A stretch of 64,000 bases of DNA. Origin: Eubacteriales bacterium (GTDB lineage: Bacteria > Bacillota > Clostridia > Oscillospirales > CAG-272). The stretch covers positions 14,938 to 78,937 of the forward strand of contig JAZOOS010000014.1 in NCBI GenBank assembly GCA_045655185.1, in the 5' to 3' direction. How positions within the stretch are numbered: position 1 is the first letter of the stretch; each line of letters opens with the position of its first letter. The translations under genes and the position numbers were made by a program. Positions 5,593 through 30,551 of the stretch are shown here, in pieces. The notes below the pieces were generated by a model, which worked only from the letters and a program-made list of their open reading frames with translations, did not search any database and was not told the DNA's origin.

Positions 5593-7191
5593 TTATACGA
5601 GCGCCTCGAAGCGGCGAACCCCACGCCCCCTTATCCAAGCCAGGAGAAGGAGGGAAAGAAGAAGCGGGATCAGCGTAAGGATCGAAAGCACCCAAAGGGG
5701 CGGCAAAATAAACGAGAGAAGGAATCCTCCGACAAGAAGGATAAAGGATAAAAAGCCCGAGGTAAGCATCGAAAAGAGCGAGGCGGCACCTTGCTTTACG
5801 GGTACTAAGAGATTGTTCCATTCAAGCTTCGGGAACAGAAGATTGAGGGTGAGCCCCAAAAGCGAAGCGCACACCGCAAAGATCAAGGGCAGGATAAGCG
5901 AAAGGATCGCTACGGGGAGAGCGGGGGTGAGGGCGATAAGGTAGATGACCCACGCCAGAAAAACGGTGATCGCCGTCGGAATGATTTGCAGAAGAAGCTT
6001 GGAATAAAGAATGGTTCGGGTGGGGACCGGCGAGGTACGCGCGATCCAAAGGCTTTTCCCCTCCAAGGAGACCGAAGCGCAGGAAAGCATCGTCATCGAA
6101 GAGATAAGGCAGCTGGCGAGCGGGGTAAGCACGGGGAGCATTCCCATCAATTCGGGAAGCTCTGCCGAGAGGGCAAACAGGGTATCACGCTCAATCAAAA
6201 GTAGGATCGGCAAAGCGAGCATAAAGAGAAGCCCGATACAACCGTTCAGTATATAGCCCGAGGAGGAAGCAAGATAGAAGAGTTCCTTTTTCGTAAAGGC
6301 CCAAATGGCGCTTGTTTTTTGAACCGTTTTTTCTTTATACGCGCGCTTACGGTGAACGGCGGGCGAGAGAACGGTTTTGAAAAAGGTTTTACTGAGCCAG
6401 TAGTACACCCCGCCAAAAAGCAGAGCCGATACGGCCAAAACGAGCAGAAAATGAAGAAAGGAGCCAAGGGCGGCGCGGCCGAACACGGCAAAGGGAAGCG
6501 CCTTTTGCAAAAAGGAGAGAAGCGGCCCGATCCCCTCCGCGGTGAATCCCTCCATCAGCATCTCGGCCTTTCCCATCAGCCAGAAATAGGCTACGAAAAA
6601 TCCGATCGCGAAAAGAACCGAGGTCAGCTGCTTATAGCGGATCCTTTGTATGATCTTGGTCAAGCACCAGCCAAAAAGGCAGGAGATCGCAAGCGTCGGG
6701 AAGGGGAGAATCAAAAAGCAAAGAAGGCACAGCGCGATATGCCCGAAGGAAAGAGGGGCAACGAGTAGCCATACGATAAAGCCGGGGATGAAGACGATCG
6801 CCTGCATCGCGTAGTTGAGAAGCAGCAAAAAGAGCATGCGGCTACATAGGATCAGATGCGGCGGAATGGGAAGAGACAGCAAAAAGGCGTTATCGCCCGC
6901 CTCAAACAGCTGGCTTTGCGTAAAGACGATACTGCCAAGCAGCATAAAGCCCATCGCGATAAGGGACATAAGGGAAAAGTACGCAAAGGGCTCTCCCAGC
7001 GAAAGGAAGAGCGGGGCCATCGAGCTGAAAACCAAAAGGAAAAGCCCGAAGAAGACGGCAAAGATGTATAAAAAGGCAAGCCCCAAAAGAATAGTAAGCG
7101 GAATGGAATGACGCTTCTTTGCCTTGTTTTTTTGGTTGCCAAAAAACAGCGAAAGGAAACGGATCTTAACCAAAAGCCATAGGGTCCTCAC
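5593..7191 (-). CDS. ABC-2-type exporter permease (polytopic membrane protein)
   Basis: 532-aa highly hydrophobic ORF. GTG start 3 nt after the stop of the ABC ATPase, preceded by GGGGAGG. Confidence 0.7.
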   Translation of the reverse strand: MRTLWLLVKIRFLSLFFGNQKNKAKKRHSIPLTILLGLAFLYIFAVFFGLFLLVFSSMAPLFLSLGEPFAYFSLMSLIAMGFMLLGSIVFTQSQLFEAGDNAFLLSLPIPPHLILCSRMLFLLLLNYAMQAIVFIPGFIVWLLVAPLSFGHIALCLLCFLILPFPTLAISCLFGWCLTKIIQRIRYKQLTSVLFAIGFFVAYFWLMGKAEMLMEGFTAEGIGPLLSFLQKALPFAVFGRAALGSFLHFLLVLAVSALLFGGVYYWLSKTFFKTVLSPAVHRKRAYKEKTVQKTSAIWAFTKKELFYLASSSGYILNGCIGLLFMLALPILLLIERDTLFALSAELPELMGMLPVLTPLASCLISSMTMLSCASVSLEGKSLWIARTSPVPTRTILYSKLLLQIIPTAITVFLAWVIYLIALTPALPVAILSLILPLIFAVCASLLGLTLNLLFPKLEWNNLLVPVKQGAASLFSMLTSGFLSFILLVGGFLLSFILPPLWVLSILTLIPLLLSLLLLAWIRGRGVRRFEALV

Positions 7192-7194
7192 GGC

Positions 7195-7917
7195 TTATTC
7201 CTCCCCGTTGTCCTTGGCGGCAAGATCCAAAAACACCGATTCGAGCGACGCGTCTCCGCGAACCGCGTCCATATCGCCCGAAACAAGCAGCTGCCCGTCC
7301 TTGATAATGGCGACCTTGTCGCAAAGCTTTTCGGCAACGTCTAAAACGTGGGTCGAGAAGAAGATCGCGCCGCCGCGGTCACAGTGCTCGCGCATCAGGG
7401 TCTTTAAGATATGCGAGGCGCGCGGGTCAAGCCCCACGAAGGGCTCGTCAAGCAAAATCAGCTTCGGCTCGTGCAAAAGGGCGCTGATGACGGCCAGCTT
7501 TTGCTTCATCCCGTGCGAATAGGTCGAGATCGGCTGCCCAAGCGCTTCCTTGATCTCAAAAAGCTCTGCGTAATGCGAAATGCGCCCGTTTCTCTCTTCG
7601 GTGCCGACACCGAAGATATCGGCGACGAAATTCAGATAGCGGATGCCGCTTAAAAAGTCATAAAGATCGGGGTTGTCGGGCAGATACGCCATTTTTGCCT
7701 TGCAGGCGAGCGGATCGTCCTTTATCGAAACGCCGTCGATCAGGATCTCTCCCCCCTCAAAGGGAAGGATCCCCGCCGCGGCCTTTAAGGTCGTGGTCTT
7801 GCCGGCGCCGTTGTGGCCGATAAAGGCAAAAAGCTCACCGGGCTTAATATGAAGCGAAAGGGCGTCAACCGCCTTTTTTTCTCCGTACCGCTTCGTCAGA
7901 TTTTCAATTTTCAGCAT
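7195..7917 (-). CDS. ABC transporter ATP-binding protein
   Basis: Start trimmed to MLKIENLTKRYG (ATG at 7917). Walker A GHNGAGKTT, signature-like YSHGMKQK, Walker B LILLDEP. The longer track ORF (to 8280) overlaps the chromate transporter gene. Confidence 0.9.
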   Translation of the reverse strand: MLKIENLTKRYGEKKAVDALSLHIKPGELFAFIGHNGAGKTTTLKAAAGILPFEGGEILIDGVSIKDDPLACKAKMAYLPDNPDLYDFLSGIRYLNFVADIFGVGTEERNGRISHYAELFEIKEALGQPISTYSHGMKQKLAVISALLHEPKLILLDEPFVGLDPRASHILKTLMREHCDRGGAIFFSTHVLDVAEKLCDKVAIIKDGQLLVSGDMDAVRGDASLESVFLDLAAKDNGEE

Positions 7918-28021: not shown

Positions 28022-28088
28022 TGTTATTCCTTCTGTGGTGCCGCGGCGGTGTAGGGGAACCCGTCTTGTAGGGGGCGCTACCACCAAA

Positions 28089-28172
28089 GCTCTTGCCATG
28101 CAAGAGCTTGCTTCAAAAGTGGAATTATCCCAACCAACAAAAAAGGACTGCGTGTGCAGTCCTTTTTTGTTG
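28089..28172 (-). repeat. tRNA-Gln-like degenerate repeat, copy C (terminator-like hairpin plus 5' block only)
   Basis: Minus strand: CAACAAAAAAGGACTGC-acac-GCAGTCCTTTTTTGTTG, then TTGGGATAATTCCACTTTTGAAGCAAGCTCTTGCATGGCAAGAGC. The 5' block is near-identical to blocks at 30188-30250 and 30380-30443. Confidence 0.7.
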
Positions 28173-28346
28173 CGATAAACGTGCGAAAAGGTGTCTAAAT
28201 AAGGAAAAAAACGAAGAAAATGTCAACTTGTTTTAATAATTCAGTTAATTTTAATTTTGAATTATTGTCACGGGTGTCACATCATTACTGAAATCATACT
28301 AATGCCAAAGGCGTGGATTCCTTCCGTAAAATAGCTTAAGTAATAT

Positions 28347-28850
28347 TCAACTGAGATATTTCTTTTCAAACTCGAAGTTCATTTTTTTAAATGGAAAATC
28401 CAGCTTGTAATCTTCCCCCTTGCATGTCTTATATAATCTTATTCGTATTTTTATCAAGGCAATGACCAAAGGAAATATTTTTTCAAGGCAAAGTATTGCA
28501 TATTCACTGCAAGACGGAACACACATGCATCTTTGCCGAGTTTCCTCTTTTGCATAATGCTGATAGCATTTCACTGTTTGAACCAAACAGAATCTTACAT
28601 ATAATTCGAATATGAAAAGAAGCAAAAGGAGAAACACGAGTATACTATGCACTGTAGAAGTCTTCTGCCAAACAAATGAGAAAAGAATTGCACAAAGCAA
28701 CAGTAACGGTATAGTAGAAAACAATAAGATTACGTGCCACTTTTTTGTATCTGGCCTTTTAAATTGCCTTCGGCAGATGAATTGCTCAAGTTTTCTCTGT
28801 TTTGCATATTCCTTTCGGCAAAGATGAACATCCGCTTGAATAGATGACAT
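28347..28850 (-). CDS. 2-TM membrane protein with C-terminal YidD-like (PF01809, haemolytic domain) module
   Basis: 167 aa. CYQHY..RQRCMCVPSCSEYAILCLEK..RLYKTC matches the YidD pattern YQ-x(n)-CRF-x-P[ST]CSxY..A...R..RC. TAATG overlap with the upstream gene. Low GC. Confidence 0.65.
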   Translation of the reverse strand: MSSIQADVHLCRKEYAKQRKLEQFICRRQFKRPDTKKWHVILLFSTIPLLLLCAILFSFVWQKTSTVHSILVFLLLLLFIFELYVRFCLVQTVKCYQHYAKEETRQRCMCVPSCSEYAILCLEKIFPLVIALIKIRIRLYKTCKGEDYKLDFPFKKMNFEFEKKYLS

Positions 28851-29491
28851 TAGTTCTTCTTATCTGAGAAAGAGATACAGCCGGCCTTCTTAGGCATTTC
28901 ATAGGAAGGATCGACCTTCTTAATCTTTTCAGCGTAGAACTCAGCCTCTCCCTTAGGAGGATAAGCGTACCACTTCTGTGCGAGCGATACGTATTCTTTC
29001 CAAGCCAATACAGCAATTGCTATAGCGCCGTTATCGCCGTTATAAAGCTTTTCGATTTCGTTACCAAGATCGCGTATTGCAAACATACCATTCTTACAAG
29101 TGGAAACGATTGCGTTCTGATCAAACACCTTAACGTAAGAATCTCCGACCTTGGTTTCGTGGTTCTTTTTGTTCATATATCTGTTCAAGGACCATGCCTC
29201 CGGAATAAATGCATTCACTATTTCGGAAATGGTTGCATACTGCTCTGTCACCGAAGCGTCGGAATTTTTTACCATCTTGATTGCCGATAAAACTACCTGG
29301 CATACGTTAGAAAATCTCTTGGGGATTTCTCCGTTTTGGCCTTCATACAATGCATAAAAAGCATAGAAAAATTTTGCTTCGCCGTCATCGGGATTTTCTT
29401 CTCTGGCCTTGTTGTAGTAGGTTTTTGCATCTTCACTGTTACCTTCTGCGCGCGCCTGACGTGCTAAGGTTAAGTACTTGTTGTTTTCCAT
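28850..29491 (-). CDS. hypothetical soluble protein with TPR-like N-terminus (213 aa)
   Basis: Start trimmed to MENNKYLTLARQARAEGNSEDAKTYYNKA (ATG 29491, AAGGAGAG upstream). No TM segments. Low GC. Confidence 0.65.
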   Translation of the reverse strand: MENNKYLTLARQARAEGNSEDAKTYYNKAREENPDDGEAKFFYAFYALYEGQNGEIPKRFSNVCQVVLSAIKMVKNSDASVTEQYATISEIVNAFIPEAWSLNRYMNKKNHETKVGDSYVKVFDQNAIVSTCKNGMFAIRDLGNEIEKLYNGDNGAIAIAVLAWKEYVSLAQKWYAYPPKGEAEFYAEKIKKVDPSYEMPKKAGCISFSDKKN

Positions 29492-29515
29492 AGAGGTTCT
29501 CTCCTTAATGTTATT

Positions 29516-29558
29516 ATTCCAAATCGGAATTATATGCATTATAATTCCAATTCGGAAT
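29516..29558. promoter_or_regulatory. two copies of a 15-bp palindromic operator ATTCCAA(A/T)TCGGAAT
   Basis: Copies at 29516-29530 and 29544-29558, plus a half-site ATTCC at 29584-29588. All lie in the divergent XRE/operon intergenic region. Confidence 0.55.
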
Positions 29559-29566
29559 TTTGTCAA
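29538..29566 (-). promoter_or_regulatory. perfect consensus promoter of the TPR-like/YidD-like operon
   Basis: Minus strand TTGACA (29561-29566), exactly 17 nt, TATAAT (29538-29543). The whole spacer is operator copy 2. Confidence 0.6.
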
Positions 29567-29616
29567 GGCTTTTTCGATATATAATTCCAAAAAAGAATAA
29601 AAAAAGAAGGCTTTTT

Positions 29617-29892
29617 ATGAAAGTTCGCAAAAAAGAATATGGAAATGCCAATATGGTTGGCAAGAAAATCGAGCAATTGAGGAAAGACAAGGGAATCAAG
29701 CAAAAGGATTTTATTGCAAAAATGCAAGTAATGGAGTGCGATATTAATCCAACCAGCTATTCAAAGCTTGAGGGGCAAGTGCGAAGCGCAACCGACAAGG
29801 AGATATTTGTAATATCAAAAATACTTGATGTGCCAATGGAATCCTTGTTTGGAGAATTAGATATAGAAGAAAAAAGAATGCCGTTGGAATGA
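29617..29892 (+). CDS. XRE-family (HTH_3) transcriptional regulator
   Basis: GKKIEQLRKDKGIKQKDFIAKM...SYSKLEG...KEIFVISKILDVPMESLF is a classic Cro/C1 HTH. An alternative start is ATG 29653. Confidence 0.8.
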   Translation: MKVRKKEYGNANMVGKKIEQLRKDKGIKQKDFIAKMQVMECDINPTSYSKLEGQVRSATDKEIFVISKILDVPMESLFGELDIEEKRMPLE

Positions 29893-29940
29893 ACGCAGAC
29901 TCACGATAAGATACAAGAGCGGCTTGGATAAACAAACAAA

Positions 29941-29982
29941 GAACGTTTGTCAGCAGACAAACTTTCTTTGTTTATTAGCTGA
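29941..29982 (+). terminator. terminator of the XRE gene
   Basis: CAAAGAACGTTTGTC-agca-GACAAACTTTCTTTG followed by TTTATT. Confidence 0.55.
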
Positions 29983-29983
29983 A

Positions 29984-30279
29984 ATAGTTGGGTATTCGCC
30001 TGTGGCAGATAACCAAGCGTGCACGAGTCTGAGCTTGCACAAGCGAGGCACGCGCAGGTTGCTCTGCGAGCACTTCGACACCGTCGAAGTAAGCCAAGGG
30101 GCGGCGCCACCACGGCGGCGCGCTCGCGGAGAGCAAGATTTTTCGCCGAGAAATCGCCTCGCGAGCGGGCGATGTTCTTTCGGCTCAAATGTGAACCAAC
30201 GCTCTTGCCATGCAAGAGCTTGCTTCAAAAGTGGAATTATCCCAACCAACCAAAAGGGCACGCCGAAGCGTGCCTTTGG
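29984..30279 (-). repeat. tRNA-Gln-like degenerate repeat, copy B (hairpin + 5' block + about 180-nt GC-rich insert + 3' block)
   Basis: Minus strand: CCAAAGGCACGC-ttcg-GCGTGCCCTTTTGG; then TTGGGATAATTCCAC..GCTCTTGC-atg-GCAAGAGC GTTGGTTCACATT; then the insert; then GCCACAGGCGAATACCCAACTAT. Confidence 0.7.
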
Positions 30280-30298
30280 CTTTCGTTTGAATCAGCGA

Positions 30299-30473
30299 TT
30301 GGGATAGTTGGGTATTCGCCTGTGGCGAAGATTCTTCGGCTTGCCGCCGATCAGCAAGCTATCGTCGCTCTGCGCCGAGAATGTGAACCAACGCCCTTGC
30401 CGTGCAAGAGCTTGCTTCAAAAGTGGAATTATCCCAACCAACCAAAAGGGCACGCCGAAGCGTGCCCTTTTGG
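30299..30473 (-). repeat. tRNA-Gln-like degenerate repeat, copy A (hairpin + 5' block + about 55-nt insert + 3' block)
   Basis: Same architecture as copy B. Begins TTGGGATA and ends CCAACTATCCCAA, so its two ends can form the same acceptor/T-stem pairs as the adjacent real tRNA-Gln. Confidence 0.7.
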
Positions 30474-30474
30474 T

Positions 30475-30551
30475 TGGCTGGGATAGTTGGATTTGAACCA
30501 ACGAAATGCCAGAGTCAAAGTCTGGTGCCTTAACCGCTTGGCTATATCCCA
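30475..30551 (-). tRNA. tRNA-Gln (anticodon TTG), CCA encoded
   Basis: Minus strand TGGGATATAGCCAAGCGGTTAAGGCACCAGACTTTGACTCTGGCATTTCGTTGGTTCAAATCCAACTATCCCAGCCA. Acceptor TGGGATA/TATCCCA, anticodon loop CTTTGAC, T-arm GTTGG-TTCAAAT-CCAAC. Confidence 0.95.

Follow-up and report, generated by a model that had tools for sequence, protein, structure and literature searches.

In a 64,000-nucleotide (nt) stretch of DNA from a Eubacteriales bacterium (contig JAZOOS010000014.1, positions 14,938 to 78,937; hereafter the window), positions 28336-29896 hold a compact three-gene cassette. It encodes a soluble protein of 213 amino acids (aa), designated P213, a 167-aa protein in which a YidD-family domain is joined to two predicted transmembrane (TM) helices (TM-YidD), and a divergently transcribed XRE-family helix-turn-helix (HTH) protein. 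Many gut bacteria carry the P213/TM-YidD pair, which resembles a docking apparatus for a soluble protein at the inner side of the membrane rather than a recognised toxin or defence system. Our tentative reading, which we put forward as possible rather than probable, is that a repressor gates the cassette and that its TM-YidD protein tethers P213 to the inner membrane face; the cassette would then represent a stripped-down, mobile variant of SPFH-associated sub-membrane systems.

We favour this reading because P213 and TM-YidD are strictly paired and their genes coupled, because the YidD domain is predicted to be cytoplasmic and its partners differ by operon type, because the promoter and its palindromes are conserved in the clade, and because searches for defence, phage and plasmid relatives gave no signal for competing explanations. 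The P213 tail is the candidate anchoring element since it is invariant, predicted to be disordered, and replaced by membrane devices in cis in remote members of the family. The link to SPFH proteins is drawn since relatives of TM-YidD and, independently, relatives of P213 that bear a CFI-box domain sit with Band_7_1 genes.

Anatomy of the cassette

The three open reading frames (ORFs) that an earlier note on this DNA had proposed were all found. Coding and control elements of the cassette are arranged as follows.

28336-29896: conserved module proper, from inter-genome DNA alignment with locus L003
28347-28850, minus strand: TM-YidD, 167 aa (ORF)
28850-29491, minus strand: P213, 213 aa (ORF from ATG)
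29516-29531: predicted operator O2, palindrome ATTCC-N6-GGAAT(T), from 7 nt past the -10 box and over the likely transcription start
29538-29566, minus strand: promoter of the P213/TM-YidD operon, -35 TTGACA (29566-29561), 17-nt spacer, -10 TATAAT (29543-29538), a 12/12 match to the sigma-70 consensus
29544-29560: predicted operator O1, palindrome AATTCC-N6-GGAATT, exactly filling the 17-nt spacer
29617-29892, plus strand: XRE-family HTH protein, 91 aa (ORF, divergent to P213/TM-YidD)
29931-29976: inverted repeat 3' of the XRE gene, a hairpin followed by T/A runs, read as a bidirectional terminator

The module is the segment that aligns with the same module elsewhere (89% nt identity to L003); similarity ends sharply on both sides. 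All P213 homologues begin with MENNKYL, and AAGGAG lies 8 nt upstream of the ATG. At the other end of the gene, the P213 stop codon overlaps the TM-YidD start codon in the sequence TAATG, the translational coupling that had been noted earlier. The impression of an AT-rich islet was likewise correct: GC content is 0.377 in the module and 0.53 in the rest of the window, and GC at third codon positions is 0.35, 0.48 and 0.40 in the three cassette genes, compared with 0.6-0.77 in 37 long host ORFs. The module is thus compositionally foreign to its host. In nearly every genome the GC content of the P213/TM-YidD pair lies below that of its flanks, slightly to markedly.

Pairing of P213 and TM-YidD and association with SPFH operons

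Adjacent, co-directional genes for P213 and TM-YidD were found at about 55 species-level loci (about 35 in a first genome scan and 20 in a second), and in most close relatives the two genes overlap or lie at most 2 nt apart. The distribution is patchy, with 39 of 185,579 species representatives positive in the first scan. A divergent small HTH gene accompanies the pair in most relatives. The neighbours in other genomes are housekeeping genes, with no defence-island, prophage or plasmid location at the loci inspected.

A broader scan for TM-YidD, comprising 80 species loci, gave these operon types.

Type A, 20 of 80 loci: P213, TM-YidD
Type B, 50 of 80 loci: Zn-ribbon-TPR protein, hyp224, TM-YidD, often with a Band_7_1 SPFH protein (plus SHOCT or GYF_2) and a multi-TM protein
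Type C, 3 of 80 loci: another 216-aa partner, TM-YidD
Unclassified, 7 of 80 loci

Throughout the subfamily, a gene for a partner of 205-225 aa always lies directly upstream of TM-YidD, and the identity of this partner goes with the operon type (P213, hyp224 or the 216-aa protein). The type C partner, which together with a 95-aa putative DNA-binding protein precedes TM-YidD (L040 4983-6399; also L158, L189 and L194), is unrelated to the others, and this provides further evidence that the upstream partner of TM-YidD is interchangeable.

Type B operons occur in Clostridia (including cultured Ruminococcus albus AR67), Treponema, Bacteroides/Prevotella and an acidobacterium. A Band_7_1 SPFH gene is present at about 30 of the 50 loci (with SHOCT or GYF_2 where scanned), and the Zn-ribbon-TPR gene in most. 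The gene order, exemplified by L120 (Bacteroides finegoldii NZ_OY725907.1 59805-63994), L041 (2648-6565) and L039 (4473-8566), is (HTH), Zn-ribbon-TPR, a hypothetical protein of about 225 aa, TM-YidD, Band_7_1 SPFH with a SHOCT or GYF_2 tail, and a multi-TM protein of about 230-250 aa; neither the hypothetical nor the multi-TM protein has a Pfam match. A gene combining Band_7_1 with a double Zn ribbon, i.e. the architecture of YdjI, was also seen just upstream at 24 of the 80 best loci encoding CFI-box relatives of P213 (described below), often followed by a multi-TM gene. Since Zn ribbon, helical domain, membrane anchor and SPFH protein recur across these operons, they form a shared vocabulary that is shuffled between one polypeptide and several.

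In Bacillus subtilis, membrane recruitment of PspA and of YdjI, a soluble SPFH protein, depends on two membrane proteins of the operon, YdjG (Zn ribbons plus TM) and YdjH (PMC8581546). A comparative study proposed that Band-7, Zn-ribbon and SHOCT-like partners assemble inner-leaflet complexes, with the SHOCT-like and Zn-ribbon proteins as predicted anchors (PMC11237479). The cassette would resemble the pspA-ydjGHI (samGHI) operon in its logic, namely recruitment of a soluble protein to the inner leaflet by small membrane proteins that the same operon encodes. For P213 and TM-YidD alike, there are homologues whose operons include YdjI-architecture Band_7_1 (plus Zn-ribbon/SHOCT), Zn-ribbon and multi-TM proteins. 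However, the window module contains no homologue of SPFH proteins, PspA, YdjG or YdjH, the sequences of P213 and TM-YidD show no relationship to those of the Ydj proteins, and control is predicted to be exerted by an XRE repressor instead of sigma-W.

Type A operons of the Christensenellaceae kind have a third gene, which starts before the TM-YidD stop codon, overlapping it, and encodes a protein of about 170 aa with a Zn ribbon, a coiled coil and a TM segment. It was seen at 16 loci, e.g. L002 6461-6985, L042 7461-7976 and L044 7467-7991; its Zn ribbon has the pattern CPxCGS...CxYC, its C-terminus ends in a conserved YTxLISKL, and it is missing in the clade of the window. One Christensenellaceae lineage (L002/L018 3934-10645) carries the cassette plus guaB between ftsY and ylxM-ffh, so that the usual smc-ftsY-ylxM-ffh-rpsP order of signal recognition particle genes is interrupted. 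This placement is probably a coincidence of the insertion site.

The C-terminal tail of P213 and its counterparts in remote relatives

P213 falls into about 320 clusters, with 65-93% identity over the 120 best, and a profile search of 1.84 billion representatives yielded 925 clusters of P213-like proteins at 50% identity. The AlphaFold2 model (pLDDT 92, pTM 0.87) is all-alpha with eight helices, and the protein is predicted to be cytoplasmic. One TPR-like hairpin is the only recognisable element: TPR_14 matches residues 6-44 with 25 bits, over its gathering score of 23.5, in agreement with the TPR-like N-terminus proposed earlier. P213 has this one unit and no tandem TPR superhelix (Foldseek TM-score at most 0.42, E at least 4e-3); Foldseek searches of the model against PDB and BFVD returned generic TPR and helical matches only, and a PDB sequence search agrees.

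The most conserved part of P213 is its C-terminus, with the consensus WKE.V.L.QK.Y...Y..KI.K..P.Y.MPKKAGC(I/V)S(F/L), whose last ~10 residues are predicted to be disordered though they are invariant. The Gly-Cys tail, ...PKK.GC(I/V).., is present in 44 of 46 distinct P213 genes, all located directly upstream of TM-YidD. Remote P213-like proteins possess an in-cis membrane device at the position of this tail, which may be a CFI-box-CTERM domain (NF041770, E ~1e-20), one or more TM helices, SHOCT plus TMs, or a short amphipathic helix such as ...PKENKIRKLILSLISFLGRK. For proteins with the amphipathic-helix tails, no locus was confirmed in genome and metagenome scans (alignment A5). Most remote P213-like proteins also carry an N-terminal Zn ribbon.

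Relatives of P213 with a CFI-box were found in at least 595 species (Clostridia, Bacteroidota and others), and most of the best-matching ones have the full architecture of Zn ribbon, P213-like domain and CFI-box in about 345-365 aa (e.g. P0346, P0362 and P0376; loci L200-L279). They share with P213 the same helical domain, including the ARxA...YY...P..EA.F hairpin, as well as the motif WK..V...Y..KI.KY.P.Y. The CFI-box starts with GCY(I/V)ATAVYGS, so that its first residues align with the terminal Gly-Cys of P213 (AGCISF). Whereas these relatives combine an N-terminal Zn ribbon, the helical domain and a 69-aa CFI-box domain at the C-terminus in one chain, P213 has neither Zn ribbon nor CFI-box and is followed by a separate TM-YidD gene. 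At the 80 best CFI-box loci, a TM-YidD gene was nearby in one case.

Three further candidate relationships were rejected. CFI-box-CTERM is not a relative of the YidD domain in spite of a similar pattern (YY.ISP vs YQ..ISP; hhalign probability 0.1%), the Bacteroides Zn-ribbon-TPR protein is not a homologue of P213 (hhalign probability 1.3%), and an apparent P213-TM-YidD fusion in L007 proved to contain a stop codon. One remote protein of 622 aa (P0348) unites Zn ribbon, TPR, TIR_2, P213-like domain and CFI-box-CTERM; it has a weak NCBIfam match to ThcB4 of Thoeris type III (E 1e-4) and is the sole hint of a link to immunity.

Family membership and topology of TM-YidD

Canonical YidD is a protein of about 70-90 aa without TM helices, encoded in an rpmH-rnpA-yidD-yidC neighbourhood and thought to assist YidC/Sec-dependent insertion. 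The family is described by PF01809 and TIGR00278 ('membrane protein insertion efficiency factor'), formerly haemolytic domain or DUF37. Judged from sequence and model, TM-YidD is a YidD-family domain on a TM stalk, predicted to face the cytoplasm. A basic N-terminal helix (residues 2-27 of a 38-aa basic N-terminus) is followed by TM helices at residues 39-60 and 69-87, the two helices of the earlier note, and by a YidD-like Cys-rich domain comprising residues ~88-153. Hydropathy and an 11:1 Lys/Arg bias predict an N-in/C-in topology. In the AlphaFold2 model (pLDDT 91), a helix at the N-terminus precedes a long TM hairpin, and the C-terminal domain is compact; neither Foldseek of this model nor a PDB sequence search retrieved a structural neighbour from PDB.

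PF01809 matches TM-YidD with E 1.7e-5 and 24.9 bits, just under the gathering score of 27, and TIGR00278 with E 4e-4 and 20.2 bits against a cut-off of 40. Over its full length, TM-YidD shares 36% identity with a Bacteroides protein that carries the annotation YidD (E 2.6e-23), a subfamily relative at L041 clears the Pfam cut-off with 47.5 bits, and precomputed PF01809 assignments exist for many TM-YidD clusters. As full-length homologues of the subfamily clear the cut-off, the window protein belongs to YidD by transitive homology, in line with the earlier assignment of the 167-aa protein as a TM-anchored YidD-family member. A BLASTP comparison with E. coli YidD aligned the motif block (E 5e-4).

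The YidD motif Y-[QR]-x-x-...-C-x-[FY]-x-P-[ST]-C-S-x-Y-[AG]...R-[IL]-x-x-C is present in TM-YidD as YQHYAKEETRQRCMCVPSCSEYA...IRLYKTC. The TM-YidD alignment contains the invariant block YQ.YA...R..C.C.PSCSEYA...RL..TC.G...D.P; Y96, Q97, C108, P112, S113, C114, S115, Y117, A118, R138, L139 and C143 are invariant in 25 sequences, and the domain has four invariant Cys (C108, C110, C114 and C143). With canonical YidD, TM-YidD shares the motif Y-Q...C-x-x-x-P-[ST]-C-S-x-Y...C in its C-terminal ~65 residues and the predicted location of this domain at the cytoplasmic membrane face, and NCBI names relatives of the subfamily YidD. It differs in being twice as large, with the basic N-terminal helix and TM hairpin in place of a peripheral amphipathic helix, and in having an extra invariant Cys (C-x-C) while the usual His after the last Cys is missing. 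Moreover, it is not encoded beside rnpA/yidC, with no rpmH-rnpA-yidD-yidC neighbours in the window or at the ~120 loci inspected, but always behind a gene for a partner of ~210 aa; and it is horizontally mobile and predicted to be under control of the XRE protein. No second yidD is present in the 64-kb window.

The TM-YidD family comprises about 300 clusters in gut Clostridia metagenomes. The protein is not peculiar to this islet: the subfamily extends over Clostridia, Bacteroidota, Spirochaetes and Acidobacteria.

Candidate repressor and operators

The operon promoter, a full consensus match overlapped by two conserved palindromes (in the spacer and just after the -10 box), agrees with the earlier proposal of a repressor-occluded promoter. 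In an alignment of nine intergenic regions from the clade of the window, TTGACA is invariant in all nine, and both palindromes are present in eight genomes, with conserved half-sites and variable central N6, as expected of the operator of a dimeric HTH protein. The exception, L045, has a different palindrome.

The XRE protein scores weakly on Pfam HTH_3 (20.5 bits against a gathering score of 23, E 5e-4) and matches the PHROG repressors phrog_8 and phrog_3 (E 3.5e-8 and 6e-8) as well as PADLOC HTH_VI (E 3e-6). Orthologous genes at other loci carry HTH_3, HTH_19 or HTH_31, and distant versions of the module have a different HTH gene of 66-69 aa in the same divergent position. The sequence suggests that the XRE protein is the presumed repressor of the operon and of itself.

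This layout is known from cassettes under XRE/Cro-CI control (type II toxin-antitoxin, abortive-infection and C-protein systems), which likewise have a small divergent HTH gene, operators over a strong promoter and a mobile low-GC context. Unlike in those cassettes, no component of the module matches a known toxin, antitoxin or defence family.

Acquisition at a tRNA-linked cargo slot

The cassette lies in a variable slot between a tRNA gene and the gene for a lipoprotein that resembles phosphate-binding proteins (PBP), flanked by the following elements.

28076-28172: left copy of the tRNA-Gln-linked repeat, adjoining the PBP gene (repeat search)
28230-30461: segment without counterpart in L047, i.e. 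the variable cargo slot between the PBP gene and tRNA-Gln (blastn against L047 and L048)
29984-30279: right repeat unit A, starting with a 23-nt box (also at 30304) and ending with the 90-nt D1 copy (30188-30277)
30304-30472: right repeat unit B, abutting the tRNA-Gln 3' end
30475-30551, minus strand: tRNA-Gln (UUG), anchor of the variable hotspot (Rfam tRNA, 65 bits)

Bracketing by a tRNA-Gln-like repeat had been noticed before, and indeed the 39-nt core of the ~90-nt repeat occurs exactly three times, at 28100, 30212 and 30404, with 0 copies expected by chance. The repeat units match no Rfam family; the sole Rfam match in the repeat region is the genuine tRNA-Gln. Read on the tRNA strand, a unit consists of the terminator hairpin, then TGGGATAATTCC...GTTGGTTCACATT, then ...CCCAACTATCCCA, and amounts to a degenerate, tRNA-Gln-like stretch whose T-arm region carries an insertion. 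Inside the left copy, a perfect hairpin (28135-28151/28156-28172) is likely, by its sequence, to be a bidirectional terminator.

L047 and L048, the two closest relatives, were found by searching species-representative genomes with the adjacent PBP-like lipoprotein. Their flanking proteins are 84-95% identical to those of the window (L047 flank DNA 88-94%), and the order p199, tRNA-Gln, gap, PBP, DUF436, HAD is kept in both. None of the three module genes is present in either. L047, which has the left repeat copy, carries 436 nt with one small hydrophobic ORF in place of window positions 28230-30461; in L048, the slot contains 1.35 kb with two unrelated ORFs between repeat units 92% identical to those of the window. 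The module of L003, a metagenome-assembled genome, is the most similar one (89% nt, 87-93% aa identity), yet its PBP, on another contig (L110), is only 66% identical, and by these comparisons module similarity is incongruent with descent. The flanks are thus syntenic while the module is missing and other cargo is present, and what had looked acquired to the earlier reader is a horizontally acquired cassette.

The L047 ORF (1139-1306) encodes a very hydrophobic peptide of about 55 aa (MEPLEFLFDFILNWFNF...ISKLIISFIV) and has its own consensus-like promoter, and neither L048 ORF (6526-6924, 132 aa; 6962-7534, ~180-190 aa) has a Pfam match. Repeat units are also located at L048 6028-6367 and 7722-7906 and at L047 1372-1446. 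The tRNA-Gln/PBP interval is therefore a hotspot of repeat units, with different cargo between them in three closely related genomes.

The module also follows closely downstream of a tRNA gene in other genomes, with direct repeats of local sequence on either side.

L045, tRNA-Met: direct repeats of 38 nt, 95% identical
L005, tRNA-Tyr: direct repeats of 27 nt
L001, tRNA-Met: 26-nt copy of the tRNA 3' end plus a 63-nt repeat

In L007, a tRNA-Gly gene is 60 nt from the XRE gene. In L003, the module stands between two 98% identical copies of 258 nt (10-267 and 2185-2442), which suggests insertion with a 258-nt target duplication; the repeats consist of the promoter and first ~60 codons of a gene of the 23S_rRNA_IVP type (four-helix bundle). 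A gene of this family is also present in the islet of L001 (318-671), upstream of the module.

The window cassette thus has the hallmarks of a tRNA-linked islet, i.e. an adjacent tRNA gene, flanking direct repeats and an empty or alternatively filled site in close relatives. No gene besides the three of the cassette lies in the variable segment, and no integrase or recombinase is encoded there. Since the repeats are variable and host-derived, a dedicated att site accounts for them less well than homologous recombination by a single crossover (Campbell-type) or mediated by the flanks, and we infer from these sequences that insertion may have occurred in this way. Cis-mobilizable elements (CIMEs) of Streptococcus are similar in their location downstream of a tRNA gene, in direct repeats starting at the tRNA 3' end, in having no integrase, and in a site that is empty or otherwise filled in close relatives. 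In contrast to CIMEs, the window cassette is only 1.6-2.2 kb in size, and its flanking repeats are local and vary by genome (26-258 nt, 73-98% identical).

Weighing a membrane-docking role against alternatives

According to the mechanism that we propose, the XRE protein would bind the two AATTCC-N6-GGAAT palindromes in the spacer and at the start site and keep the coupled operon off until a cue relieves repression. The derepressed operon would then yield P213 and TM-YidD in coupled amounts. The cytoplasmic YidD domain may serve as membrane receptor or anchor for the P213 tail, and if so, expression would bring P213 to the inner leaflet, the site at which membrane devices in cis hold its relatives. 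There, P213 might serve as an adaptor or scaffold in sub-membrane functions, of maintenance or stress, such as those that YdjI-type SPFH proteins organise. Such a scaffold or stress output is probable through the association with SPFH systems.

Several points weigh against this proposal and keep our confidence low. The contact between P213 and TM-YidD is one that we infer, and as a Band_7_1 SPFH gene is absent from the module and from the whole 64-kb window, the connection with SPFH systems comes from relatives and not from the locus itself. By hhalign, no homology is seen between CFI-box-CTERM and the YidD domain, so that anchoring in cis and in trans would be an analogy of position and not of descent. 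In addition, the lifestyle of the cassette also suits a conflict system: mobile, low-GC cassettes in cargo hotspots, tightly repressed as is predicted here, are the usual habitat of such systems, a small membrane protein with a variable upstream partner fits there as well, and one remote P213-like protein is fused to a TIR domain.

A conflict module for abortive infection, defence or toxicity, with TM-YidD as membrane-perturbing effector, the upstream protein as sensor or antidote and the XRE protein as silencer, is accordingly an alternative that we take seriously but consider unlikely. To the features just named, it adds a consensus promoter under two predicted operators, other small cargo in relatives, the patchy distribution, and an effector role in line with the old family name 'haemolytic domain'. 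However, P213, TM-YidD and the type B and C partners have no match in PADLOC, and PHROG has none for P213, TM-YidD or their relatives in other operon types. IMG/VR (2.9 million viral contigs) holds no relatives of P213 or TM-YidD, and a plasmid collection none of P213; the single match for TM-YidD there is a Bacteroides finegoldii record flanked by housekeeping genes. The Pfam Cpta_toxin score in the cassette reaches only E 0.059. These searches and the housekeeping neighbours lend no positive support to the toxin or defence reading of the earlier note; also, P213 is unusually conserved for a sensor, and the relatives are embedded in SPFH operons. Decay of a prophage or integrative element into a lysogeny or immunity remnant without present function would account for the tRNA-adjacent site, the flanking repeats without integrase and the resemblance of the XRE protein to phage repressors, but it is scarcely credible given the blank IMG/VR and PHROG searches for P213 and TM-YidD, three intact genes under evident purifying selection across hundreds of clusters, and a regulatory region conserved base by base.

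TM-YidD could alternatively be an accessory factor of membrane-protein biogenesis that assists YidC/Sec-dependent insertion, with P213 as TPR-type co-chaperone delivering clients. YidD homology, the TPR-like hairpin and the module between ftsY and ylxM-ffh would agree with this, as would the link of SPFH proteins (HflK/C) to membrane-protein quality control. We regard it as improbable, as the ftsY/ffh site is confined to a single lineage with other contexts unrelated, no locus inspected shows yidC, rnpA or sec linkage, and XRE repression, horizontal acquisition and patchy distribution are unlike a housekeeping role. Less probable still is an enzyme-substrate pair in which the YidD domain modifies or covalently captures Cys205, the invariant C-terminal Cys of P213 (S-acylation, thioester, shared zinc), i.e. 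chemical anchoring. The invariant Gly-Cys in a basic-then-hydrophobic tail, PKKAGC(I/V)S(F/L), resembles lipidation motifs, TM-YidD offers four invariant Cys, and the same Gly-Cys opens the CFI-box in fused relatives. The argument is one of motif resemblance, though; to our knowledge, no catalytic activity has been described for any YidD, TM-YidD has no structural neighbour in PDB, and the tail Cys is followed by 3-8 variable residues, i.e. it is not a strict C-terminal box.

Implications for the YidD family

Membership in the YidD family is nothing new in itself, since NCBI lists these proteins under that name. The arrangement itself, which the earlier note believed to be undescribed, has no account in the searchable literature: a TM-anchored YidD subfamily with obligatory partners, the P213-like family with its alternation of tail and anchor, the link of both families to YdjI-type SPFH operons and a mobile, XRE-gated minimal version are not described there. 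The same literature contains nothing on CFI-box-CTERM and nothing tying YidD to SPFH, PspA or SHOCT. What emerges is a TM-anchored YidD subfamily in at least four phyla, with a dedicated upstream partner and often in YdjI-type SPFH operons. Three uncharacterised families, namely P213-like proteins (~900 clusters at 50% identity), CFI-box-CTERM and the type B partners, become tied to sub-membrane scaffold systems of gut anaerobes. Should the cassette be a conflict module after all, it would represent a new conflict cassette with a membrane effector.

Although almost all bacteria have YidD, its biochemical role is poorly understood, and the PDB searches made for this analysis retrieved no solved structure. 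A speculative idea, to which we give little credence, is that at the cytoplasmic face the YidD fold docks or processes short C-terminal tails that contain a Cys, and that TM-YidD captures or modifies the Gly-Cys tail of P213 as an in-trans equivalent of CFI-box-CTERM. If true, this would provide the first defined molecular ligand for the YidD family, including housekeeping YidD, together with a tractable assay. The two-gene version in the window is the simplest such system, with a soluble Cys-tail protein, TM-YidD, one predicted repressor and defined operators, and this minimal pair offers a directly testable hypothesis on the ligand of the YidD domain.

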